In this document: positions 40,818-58,875 of the stretch, piece after piece | Numbering within the stretch: the stretch's first letter is position 1 | How the letters are laid out: every line of letters starts with the position of its first letter | Assembly (NCBI RefSeq): GCF_001447785.1 | Contig: NW_015167096.1 | Coordinates: forward strand, 128,304 to 192,303 | Origin: Gekko japonicus | Lineage: Eukaryota | DNA length: 64,000 nt | Direction of reading: 5' to 3' | Program-made: the position numbers and the translations under genes | The notes under the pieces: model-generated | What the model was told of the DNA's origin: nothing | The model's input: the letters and a program-made list of their open reading frames with translations, nothing else | The model's database searches: none

Positions 40818-41604
40818 ACGTTTGTTTTAGAACTCCTACTCGTTCTCCATAGACAGGCATTCATCATGATCATGAATCTACAGATGGGAAGTATGACAGC
40901 CGCATGATCAGCACACTCATAGGATGTGGACTGTACCACATTATATTGCAGCGAAGGGGGAAGAATGACCTATTTAATATTTTGCCTCTCTGGATATAGA
41001 AAACTAACTTACTGAGGACCAGGCTAGCCAGGCTAAAATAATTCTTTTTTCTGAGGAAAAATCTTTGTGGGAATTGTTTATACATGTAATCCCTTCCCCC
41101 CTGCTGTCTGATGGGGCATTCCAAGAAATTGAATGCTGATCATAGAATTTGACTGTGAGGCACCAAGAAACAAGGTCAGTTTCCAAGATGTGTGTGGCAC
41201 ATGGATGGCATGGTAGAACATGTTACATCAGCCCTAGCTATAGCTCTGCTACCCAAGAAATTTCATGGCTGAGTAGACCTTCGAACCCAGACCTTCATGG
41301 ACCAAGGCAAGCATTCTATCCAGCACTACACACTCGCCTATTTTTTTCGGCCTATCTTTTTGTTCCTGCTCACAGGGACAAGTAATAATTTTGCTGAATG
41401 ACTGTATTTTAATATTCTTCAAAGGGATGAATTATTGTGGATTTCACATTTTTAAAAAAAGTTATCACAATAGTCTTTGACTCACTAACAATGAATCATG
41501 AGCTGTATGTTCTACTCATTTTCTCTCTTTTTGTGTGTGGCAAGCCTACATTGTATCCCTCACAGTTTAAAGTGGGAGAGTCTAGATAGAGGCTTACCAC
41601 TACA

Positions 41605-41849
41605 GCTGCCAGCCTCCAGGTGGGACCAGGGGACCCCCTGGAATTACAGCTCATCTTCAGACTAGAGAGATCAGTTCCCCTGGAGAAAATGGATGCTTTG
41701 GAGGGTGGACTCGATGGCACTGTTCCCACTGAAGTCTCTGTCCTCCCCAGGCTCCATCCCCAAATCTCCAGGAGCTTCCCAACCTGGATCTGGCAACTCT
41801 CCCTGCCGGTGGCTGGGGGTGAGGTGGGGGGAGAGACCTAGCAACCCTG
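41605..41849. mobile_element. hAT Blackjack-like MITE (33380 family)
   Basis: Homology to 33380-33598; ends agcaaccctg; further fragments at ~57472-57569 and 57775-57940. Confidence 0.8.
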
Positions 41850-41953
41850 CTTAACATTTTATCTTCTATATGTTGTCGAAGGTTTTCACGGCCGGAGTTC
41901 GTTAGTTGTTGTAGATTTTCCGGGTTGTGTGAGCGTGGTCTTGGCATTGTAGA

Positions 41954-41996
41954 ACCTGACGTTTCGCCAGTAGCTGTGACTGGCATCCTCAGAGGT
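41954..41996 (-). ncRNA. Minimal type I hammerhead ribozyme (mirror copy)
   Basis: Exact reverse complement of 42074-42116. Confidence 0.85.
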
Positions 41997-42073
41997 ATAA
42001 CACAGAAAGATGGAGTACTCTCTGTGTCAAGGTGAGAAGAAGACACAGAGAATACTCCATCTTTCTGTGTTAT

Positions 42074-42116
42074 ACCTCTGAGGATGCCAGTCACAGCTAC
42101 TGGCGAAACGTCAGGT
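42074..42116 (+). ncRNA. Minimal type I hammerhead ribozyme
   Basis: ACCU CUGAGGA U GCCAGU-CACAGCU-ACUGGC GAAAC GUC AGGU: intact core, 6-bp stem II, 4-bp stem I, palindromic (ACGU) stem III; predicted cleavage after 42112. Confidence 0.85.
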
Positions 42117-42507
42117 TCTACAATGCCAAGACCTTGGCCATACAACCTGGAAAATCTACAGCAACTTTATCTTCTGCTTTTGAGAAGTAGGCTCTAATTG
42201 CTACCTTGCAAATATGGGAGAAACTGGTGAGTTTTGGCCTGAGCTCTGTCCATTTTTTGAACCATTCACAGAAATCAGAAATCTAATACCAGACTTGCAG
42301 GGACAATTTCTTCCTTCCATGGCAGTCCCCTACAGTGTTGTATCTGTGTGTGTGTGGGGGGGGGGGCTGAAATGACTTGTGAGAGGAATCAGTGACAAAA
42401 ATCCCCCCTCACCTGCAGAAAGTGTAGGCAGGATCCAAACCCATATAGATTACATAAAAGCTGTACATCATATATGCACAATGAAATGAATCTACAAAAC
42501 TTGCAGC

Positions 42508-42936
42508 CAGAGGTCATTTCGGGGGGGATTGCGGGGGATCGCAGTTCCCCCAGGTGAGGTACAGGGGGCAGGGCACATGACGAAGCCCCGCCCCTGCTTC
42601 CGGCCGCCCCGCTTCCAGCCCTCATTCAGCCAGGAGGAGGCAGGAGAAGAGGGAGGGTAAGTTGCTTCCTCCCTGCCTCTCCCCACCCCTGCCTGCCTGG
42701 GGCCAGGGAGGGCCGTTGCGGGGCTTCCTTGCACTCCCACCGGCCTTGCAGGTCCACCACCGGGCCCCTCACGGGGCTTGGCAGTGGAGCTGCAAGGCCG
42801 GCAGCGGCGGCCGGGACCGTTGGGGGCGGGGTGTGTGGCCTTATGACACACTTCCGGTGATGTCAGGGGGTGTGGCATATGCTAATGAGTTATGCTAATG
42901 AGTTCCCCTAGCTCTTTTTCTATGAAACGACCCCTG
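42508..42936 (+). mobile_element. hAT MITE, family B
   Basis: Perfect TSD cttgcagc; longer sister of 18108-18479. Confidence 0.95.
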
Positions 42937-57471: not shown

Positions 57472-58386
57472 TTTTCTCCGGGGGGGGGGGAGAGGAGAGA
57501 TCTGTTGTCTGGAGTTCAGTTGTGATACCTGGTGATCTTCAGGCTCCACCTGGAGGTTGGCTGCCCTAGGCGTAGCATTCAGTGCTTCAGAGCAGGGTCT
57601 GCTAGATCCAGGGTCTTGCTATAGAAGCTGAGTGGGTGATTTTGGATCAGTCACAGCCTTTCAGCCTAACCTACCTCACAGGGTTGTTGTGCAAGTCAAA
57701 AGGGGGAGAGGAGAATGATGTAAACCACTTTGGTCCCCATTGCAGAGAAAGACTACTTTTCCTCATGGGAAACCATTGTTGCCAATCTCCAGGTGAAGGC
57801 CAGAGATCACTCAGAATTACAAGTGCTCTCCAGATGGCAGAGATCAGTTCCCCTGGAGAAAATGGTGGACTCTGTGGCAGTCAGTGCTTCAGAGCACGGA
57901 AAGTGGTGGACTCTGTGTCATTATACCCTGCTGAGGTCACCACAGCACATTGACACTGAGTGCCCAAGGCCTTTGCACTCTCCCAGAGCCTCTTTCTAGA
58001 GCTCATTGTATTTATTTCCACAACGAGCCTTATTCCTAGTTAGCCATAAAGCTCACTGGCTTGCTTTGAACATCATCATCTCCAAGCTTAAGATATCACA
58101 TTTGTCATTATATGCTTAACTATACAAGGCATTTTACCATTCCATTTATCTTCAAAACAACCCTGGGAAGTAAATCAGGCTGTTATTAATGTTATTCTAG
58201 CCATGTATTTATTATTGATTTATACCCTGCCTTTTTTTAACCAATGGGAACACAATGAGGCTTATAACTTTCTTCTATCCTTTTTATCCTTGCGACTTCA
58301 ACTCTGTGAAGTAGGTTAGGCTAAGAAAGAGTGATTGGCCCAAGGTCACCCAGCAATCTTCCAAAGAAGAGCAAGGATATGAACTC

Positions 58387-58875
58387 AATAGAGAGCATTT
58401 TAACATACTGTGTCTGTGTCTGGTTTGCCAGTTGTACGGCTGTGGAGAGGAAAGCACTCCAGAGAGTTATCATCACAGCCCAGAAGATTATTGGCTGTCC
58501 TCTCCCACTCATGGAGGAATTGTATAGTTCTCGATGCTTGAAAAAAGCAAAGAACATTTTGCAGGATTTGTCACACCCTGAACACTCCCTGTTTGAACTG
58601 CTGCCTTCGGGTAGAAGATATAGGACAATAAAAACAAGGACAAACAGATTAAAAAACAGTTTTTATTCGAGAGCTATTATTGCTTTAAATGCTGTATGAA
58701 TTGGAATTTGGTGGTTTTGTTGACATTGGTGGTTAAGTTGCAATGTGAACCCTAATGGTTGTGTGAGTGTATATGAGTATGGTTGTATGAGTGTATATGA
58801 GTATGCTTGTAGATCACCGAATGATTGCACCTTAATTTCGTTGTACTATGTACAATGACAATAAAGTATATTACC
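58387..58875 (+). mobile_element. Rex1/Babar LINE 3' fragment inserted into an old SINE
   Basis: IESILTYC..VWF.SCT..ERKALQRV...AQKIIG..LP...SHP.H.LFELLPSGRRYR...TNRLKNSFY and the tail aatttcgttgtac..gtacaatgacaataaag. Confidence 0.92.

Follow-up and report, generated by a model that had tools for sequence, protein, structure and literature searches.

In the present study, a 298-bp fold-back insertion at 41868-42165 of the window, a 64,000-nt stretch of Gekko japonicus DNA, was found to consist of two 5'-truncated ends of a Penelope-like element (PLE) placed back to back. What is established for this unit is its membership in the PLE family, its back-to-back arrangement, the presence of a long element end at +119 and of a short one at +82, and the single occurrence of its junction. 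We regard the unit as a dead-end PLE stub, which was likely generated by priming from both nicked strands of the target, once per internal start site. Moreover, the pairing of one long with one short end is a solid rule among the TSD-bounded fold-backs examined in this genome (TSD, target-site duplication).

The insert is bounded by two copies of a 10-bp target-site duplication (TSD), TTTATCTTCT, at 41858-41867 and 42166-42175. The left arm (41868-42041, minus strand) comprises a 5'-truncated pLTR and the start of the element ORF, from -55 to the long 3' end at +119, numbered with the A of the ATG as +1. The right arm (42042-42165, plus strand) has the same composition, from -42 to the short 3' end at +82, and is a subset of the left arm in this copy. 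Complementarity between 41905-42028 and 42042-42165 extends over 116 of 124 positions, seven of the eight mismatches lying in the outer 32 bp and one in the inner 92 bp. The arms are separated by a 13-nt loop (42029-42041), in which the left arm continues further 5' into the pLTR; the loose ends at 42041 run on as pLTR. At the left end, 37 nt (41868-41904, minus strand) are unpaired; they correspond to ORF positions +83 to +119, are confined to the left arm and are the known PLE tail. Two 43-mers with hammerhead motifs, at 42074-42116 (plus strand) and 41954-41996 (minus strand), are identical to each other, and 10 CpG dinucleotides are found in the insert (O/E 0.61, versus 0.28 for the window). 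Thus, the TSD, the 124-bp arms, the two identical minimal hammerheads, the retained CpGs and the insertion of an inverted partial pLTR, all claimed in an earlier note made from the sequence alone, hold at their coordinates. The term "ORF-less" used there is not quite right, since each arm contains the start of the element ORF, in the left arm its first 40 codons (41867-41986, minus strand), the final base of which lies inside the TSD.

The Penelope origin suggested by the earlier note is borne out by the proteins of the family. Translation of the left arm yields 40 residues, 19 of which (48%) are identical to residues 1-40 of P0002, an 836-aa reverse transcriptase protein of Anolis carolinensis (E 3e-10). 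Longer copies extend upstream into frames with RVT_1 matches and endonuclease-like YIG...R..EH motifs. The RVT_1 matches, on fragments of loci L059 (E 1e-5) and L058 (E 9e-4), are both under the curated cut-off; a 295-aa frame of L059 shows 69% identity to P0002, and PF00078 is present in most of the homologues listed for this frame (24 of 24). The ORF ends of L049, L058 and L059 carry VYIGT...R.KEH, CSC and H motifs, which we take to be those of a GIY-YIG endonuclease; they align at 69% to P0002, and Pfam gave only sub-threshold T5orf172 matches on the endonuclease frames. The family thus encodes a reverse transcriptase and, by motif and by the alignment to P0002, a C-terminal GIY-YIG endonuclease, its hammerhead-bearing pLTR end and its ORF start overlap, and the window copy has a 37-nt tail on one end, an inverted arm and a 10-bp TSD, which are the features of an endonuclease-bearing (EN+) PLE. 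A search for an autonomous partner with both enzymes had also been proposed in the earlier note. Longer copies do carry both; an uninterrupted full-length ORF was not found among the 61 matches of P0002 in this genome, the best of which covers residues 171-701 with stops, in a stricter first look at a fragmented assembly. The 69% identity to the Anolis protein and the hammerhead and ORF geometry shared with PAc, the Poseidon element of A. carolinensis, would place the family in the Penelope/Poseidon clade, and P0002 is presumably PAc or a close relative.

The plus-strand hammerhead consists of a 4-bp stem I, CUGAGGA at 42078-42084, an extra U at 42085, a 6-bp stem II, GAA at 42105-42107, ACGU at 42108-42111 and C17 at 42112. 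The cut is predicted after 42112, and after 41958 for the minus-strand motif. The start codon of the ORF coincides with A9-U-G10.1 of the hammerhead (42084-42086), and the predicted cut site lies 26 nt beyond it. Stem III is an ACGU palindrome without a loop and cannot close inside one motif, so the motif is a minimal, dimer-type hammerhead. The CUGANGA/GAAA core, NUH site and short helix I of the minimal type I PLE hammerhead are all present, as are the extra nucleotide before G10.1-C11.1 and the palindromic 15.2-16.2 described in PMC4209133. Only one motif occurs per strand, and a same-strand dimer partner is missing from the unit; no second copy of the family was detected within the 64-kb window. 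The earlier description of the hammerheads as intact holds in the sense of this minimal type. The proposed hammerhead model search returned 59 Rfam matches at E<=10, none of them to a hammerhead family and none at gathering score, the top matches being generic hairpin models.

The end rule was obtained from copies across the genome. The right arm gave 1105 first-look candidates, and fold-backs of the same geometry (two outward arms 55-110 nt apart) were found in at least 287 places. Among 89 loci sampled by exact hammerhead, outward inverted arms were present in 35 and both motifs were spanned in 27. The 3' ends of the element are bimodal, mostly at +79 to +93 and at +106 to +119. Among 55 outward inverted pairs, including the window copy (L001), 48 combined a long with a short end (P 5e-9 versus independent ends), and a TSD of at least 9 bp was observed in 39 of these 48 pairs and in none of the 7 others (6 of 325 shuffled flank pairs). 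Duplicate rows were removed from all tallies (L015, L031, L079, and L163, which duplicates the window copy), and L029 was also removed from some (variant sharing, stub, 5' end). Seven exceptions remain: two are mirrored into their flanks, a third has a stub of the long-end class with a TSD just beyond it, in a fourth such a stub is displaced, a fifth is located inside a larger structure, and two are without explanation. The two mirrored ones, L075 (on C57) and L110 (on C1695), are short+short fold-backs in which the flanking DNA is mirrored too, the arms of L110 being identical; both probably reflect either mirroring in the assembly or the inverted duplication of a larger stretch. A held-out set was then picked by centre only, with the prediction recorded beforehand; of the first 50 of the 287 places listed, 42 had not been sampled, and 40 of these were taken. 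Of these, 33 were long+short, 3 were short+short and 4 were unclassifiable, and all 30 with a TSD were long+short (shuffled control, 3 of 199). Over both sets, every one of the 69 TSD-bounded fold-backs (69/69) combines a long (+119) with a short (+85) end. Even inverted stubs made of a tail or an end only obey the rule: 5 of 81 non-inverted copies have a short inverted stub, and all five stubs are of the complementary end class. The TSDs of the fold-backs cluster at 11-13 bp, with 12 bp in 17 of 38. Only 20 of the 81 non-inverted copies have a TSD, which implies that other insertion routes exist, and the commonness of TSDs in fold-backs and their rarity in non-inverted copies suggests two ways of finishing insertion.

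The 5' ends of the arms are also non-random. A pile-up at -48 to -41, a range chosen after inspection of the data, includes 25 of 107 arms, and 35 of 174 over all loci. One genomic copy has a TATA-like box at -77, with the pile-up 30 nt below it, and at -47 an A that resembles an initiator; the box is absent from the window unit. For the right arm, which begins at -42, synthesis likely continued off the 5' terminus of an RNA initiated in the pLTR, with an inferred start near -47; in the unit, this start corresponds to the A at 42033 in the loop (42029-42041, minus strand). The left arm, beginning at -55, requires a longer template. Arms starting at the hammerhead cut (+30) were also considered but are not supported, a start at +27 to +33 being found in 1 of 107 arms; because the sampling required an intact motif, such starts can be judged from partner arms only. 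A scan for bacterial promoters and terminators, unsuited to this genome, yielded nothing.

With regard to ribozyme function, folding of the whole unit is predicted to leave stems I and II with a pair probability of 0.000 on both strands, the predicted energy of the hairpin being -235 kcal/mol versus -83 for the separated halves; in a lone arm, stem I is predicted at a pair probability of only 0.002. The order proposed by the earlier note, in which the antisense arm precedes the sense ribozyme on either strand, is correct, and masking of both hammerheads by the hairpin is predicted as it proposed, both being consequences of the geometry of any outward-facing pair of arms. A working cleavage site in transcripts is not supported, since a transcript would contain one sense motif, and a single minimal hammerhead shows no detectable cleavage and dimers little (PMC4209133). 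In addition, the PAc hammerhead cleaves only with the element protein, and hammerhead cleavage is dispensable in vitro (PMC11167929). An internal promoter is known for Drosophila Penelope (PMC2377424), and a transcript with its start at 42033, within the loop, would escape masking, although it too would lack a partner for the dimer. In three RNA runs (3-12% of each sampled), depth was 0 in the unique flanks at 41400-41575 and 42192-42499, and family-level reads covered the arms on both strands. No pile-up of read ends was observed at the cut site in fragmented RNA-seq, a weak readout. A-to-I editing, a proposed check, received no support, as no RNA-only A>G changes were among the rows listed; the A>G/T>C differences derive from paralogues and are likewise present in the DNA run. 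Given no same-strand partner, full predicted masking and no sign of transcription in these few libraries, the hammerheads are probably inactive in the window unit.

Several features of the surroundings have also been recorded. Two other high-copy repeats with very high DNA depth flank the site (41576-41839, and 42500-42700 onward), and the downstream one contains a GC-rich 29-bp inverted repeat with a 4-nt loop (42740-42801). At 58325-58699 (plus strand), a 124-aa frame without a Pfam match at E<=0.001 presumably resembles the C-terminus of a LINE protein of the Rex1/Babar type. In a search for a host gene, 145 of the 302 stop-to-stop frames that are free of N and at least 62 aa long were compared with Pfam, with one sub-threshold match; short exons would escape such a search. 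Elsewhere in the genome, a different fold-back of the same family, with short ends, with a shared centre and without its own TSD, is repeated at about 18 loci (22 pattern matches; L177, L185, L191 and L204-L225, e.g. C1141:232808-233149, C2781:902901 and C2244:517828). The repeat that encloses it is at least 1.9 kb long and has a sharp end about 430 bp beyond the right arm, with a CAGGG-type terminus that we take to be hAT-like. Three of these loci are 1.17-kb, 98% palindromes centred on the fold-back and located beside an N gap, with one flank in common; they are either a real rearrangement or an assembly artefact.

The earlier note interpreted the unit as a special self-masking bidirectional ribozyme and source of dsRNA. 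That such a unit has been kept intact for a role is very improbable in our judgement, despite some features in its favour. Both motifs correspond to the family majority, the 43-mer being present in none of 44 arms sampled by protein-coding region and hence independently of the hammerhead; the inner 92 bp differ at one site, masking is predicted, and family-level RNA is found on both strands. Indeed, the window copy is unusually well preserved. However, exact copies of the 41-nt core number 401 in the genome (0 for the reversed control), at least 7 exact opposite-strand pairs within 500 bp occur among the first 100 matches listed, and the geometry is found in hundreds of copies, 17 of the 40 held-out fold-backs retaining both cores. 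The core is kept in 18 of the 44 hammerhead-independent arms and the catalytic G12 is altered in 30%, so that the hammerhead is decaying across the family through CpG loss, without a sign of selection. Selection or conversion acting on the inner arms was considered for the one inner mismatch among eight and rejected, because the outer 32 bp are more variable in all fold-backs (12% versus 4-6%). The zero RNA depth in the unique flanks in all three runs, the lack of an end pile-up at the cut site, the base differences shared with DNA and the failure of single minimal motifs to cleave (PMC4209133) argue against a role as well. It is harder still to credit a non-autonomous, retrozyme- or MITE-like unit that copies itself as a hairpin. 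Many fold-backs are of similar size, and the different fold-back that recurs inside a larger repeat might seem to be such a unit, but its loci have shared flanks and no TSD of their own. When up to 1 mismatch is allowed, the 30-nt junction of the window unit is found at a single place in the genome. The unit thus did not amplify itself, and the search for copies sharing its loop, which the earlier note proposed, detected no other at this level; the coordinates of the centre differ between copies, and the tandem units that define non-LTR retrozymes (bioRxiv 10.64898/2026.07.22.740005) are absent. Finally, mirroring of one arm by the assembly has a negligible probability. Such an artefact is conceivable in an assembly of 191,500 contigs in which L075 and L110 are mirrored into their flanks; against it, the arms of the window unit differ at eight positions, a TSD bounds them, and the flanks are not mirrored. 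Contigs of the DNA runs X1 and X2, which are possibly not independent of the assembly, cross the right junction, and one X1 contig extends 30 bases over the left. Run X12 had no coverage of the unique flanks, and no empty-site joint was among the joints listed at the window locus, where DNA depth was 1-2.

A more serious rival, which we nevertheless consider unlikely, derives the inverted arm from self-priming or copy-back of one cDNA, or from an antisense template, with trimming of one end by the endonuclease to give the one-sided tail. Self-priming has been proposed in PMC3846280 and a tail from EN-mediated resolution in PMC8557442. Variants are shared by the two arms of one insertion at 249 of 309 diagnostic sites (80.6%), far above shuffled pairs (58.3%, with a maximum of 69% in 2000); such agreement fits a common source RNA as well as copy-back or subsequent gene conversion. 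In the window copy, the short arm is contained within the long arm, so copy-back retains a place there. In 21 of the 48 long+short pairs, however, the short-ended arm extends further 5', each arm then having sequence absent from the other, and thus neither arm is a plain copy of the other. Copy-back is also at odds with the tail-only and end-only stubs that follow the same rule, and with the coincidence of both end classes with the two RT start sites published for Anolis (PMC11167929). According to that study, each of the two target strands is cut and extended by the Anolis enzyme, and PAc reverse transcription starts at two internal RNA sites, which define the tail. As a point against two-strand priming at separate sites, the start site was observed not to differ between strands in PMC11167929, and coupling of the two sites is not reported there. 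We nevertheless favour two-strand priming, a mechanism read from genomic scars. Staggered nicks in the target would give rise to the TSD; priming would occur near +119 on one target strand and near +85 on its partner; the right-arm cDNA would run to the 5' end of the pLTR-initiated RNA; and the two cDNAs would be joined at the centre to form the fold-back. The hammerheads would be carried along because they overlap the ORF start, which is always copied first. A published statement of two-sided priming in PLEs was not found among papers available without subscription. Twin priming of L1 also places an inversion inside one TSD by priming on both target strands, its two pieces being derived from neighbouring regions of one RNA that do not overlap. 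In the fold-back, by contrast, a single stretch is present in both arms, and the arms begin at fixed internal sites.

These results are consistent with what is known of related elements. In published EN+ PLE insertions, an inverted 5'-truncated copy, a 30-40 bp tail on one end and an 8-10 bp TSD have been described (PMC8557442, Fig. 2 legend; PMC3846280). The window unit resembles them, including Pen2a_Av (PMC3846280), in its inverted truncated copy, its one-end tail, its TSD and a pLTR with the first ORF codons; it differs in that both halves are under 180 bp and consist of ends only. The tail is optional in those accounts, whereas exactly one was present in every TSD-bounded fold-back examined here. 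In Schistosoma mansoni, dual minimal hammerheads on opposite strands, about 100-700 bp apart, have been ascribed to truncated PLEs (PMC4209133). The motifs share the extra nucleotide between 9 and 10.1, G10.1-C11.1 and the palindromic 15.2-16.2, but host and family are different, and helix II is 6 bp here and 7-8 bp in S. mansoni. As in PAc, the ORF starts at stem II with the cut 26 nt past the start codon, copies end at two internal sites, the far one near +111-118, and the target is AT-rich; however, PAc is a full-length active protein-coding element and the window unit is a stub, and inverted insertions are not treated in PMC11167929. Like the non-LTR retrozymes (bioRxiv 10.64898/2026.07.22.740005; PMC7229834), the unit is PLE-derived, has a type I hammerhead and gives no protein product. 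In retrozymes, units that each contain a motif are arranged in direct tandem and amplified as units, whereas the fold-back has an inverted arrangement and a junction that occurs once.

Opposite-strand hammerhead pairs and an inverted copy with a one-sided tail have thus already been published, and there is nothing unusual about the locus as such; the statistics of the family are of modest importance. Herein, we lean, by somewhat better than an even chance, towards the proposal that asymmetry is obligatory in Penelope/Poseidon integration. A single RNP, which is probably dimeric, would nick both target strands and prime one at +119 and the other at +85, never using the same site twice, and its copying would often extend to the extreme 5' end of an RNA initiated in the pLTR. 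The tail described as optional would then be a fixed signature of two-sided priming, and the hundreds of fold-backs in this genome would be a record of the process that also marks the transcript start near -47. For the origin of inverted ends and the one-sided tail in PLEs, the long+short rule, followed in 69 of 69 cases, provides a lead that is testable in the in vitro Anolis system. Moreover, opposite-strand hammerhead pairs in reptile-like genomes are to be read as routine insertion scars and not as designed RNA switches.
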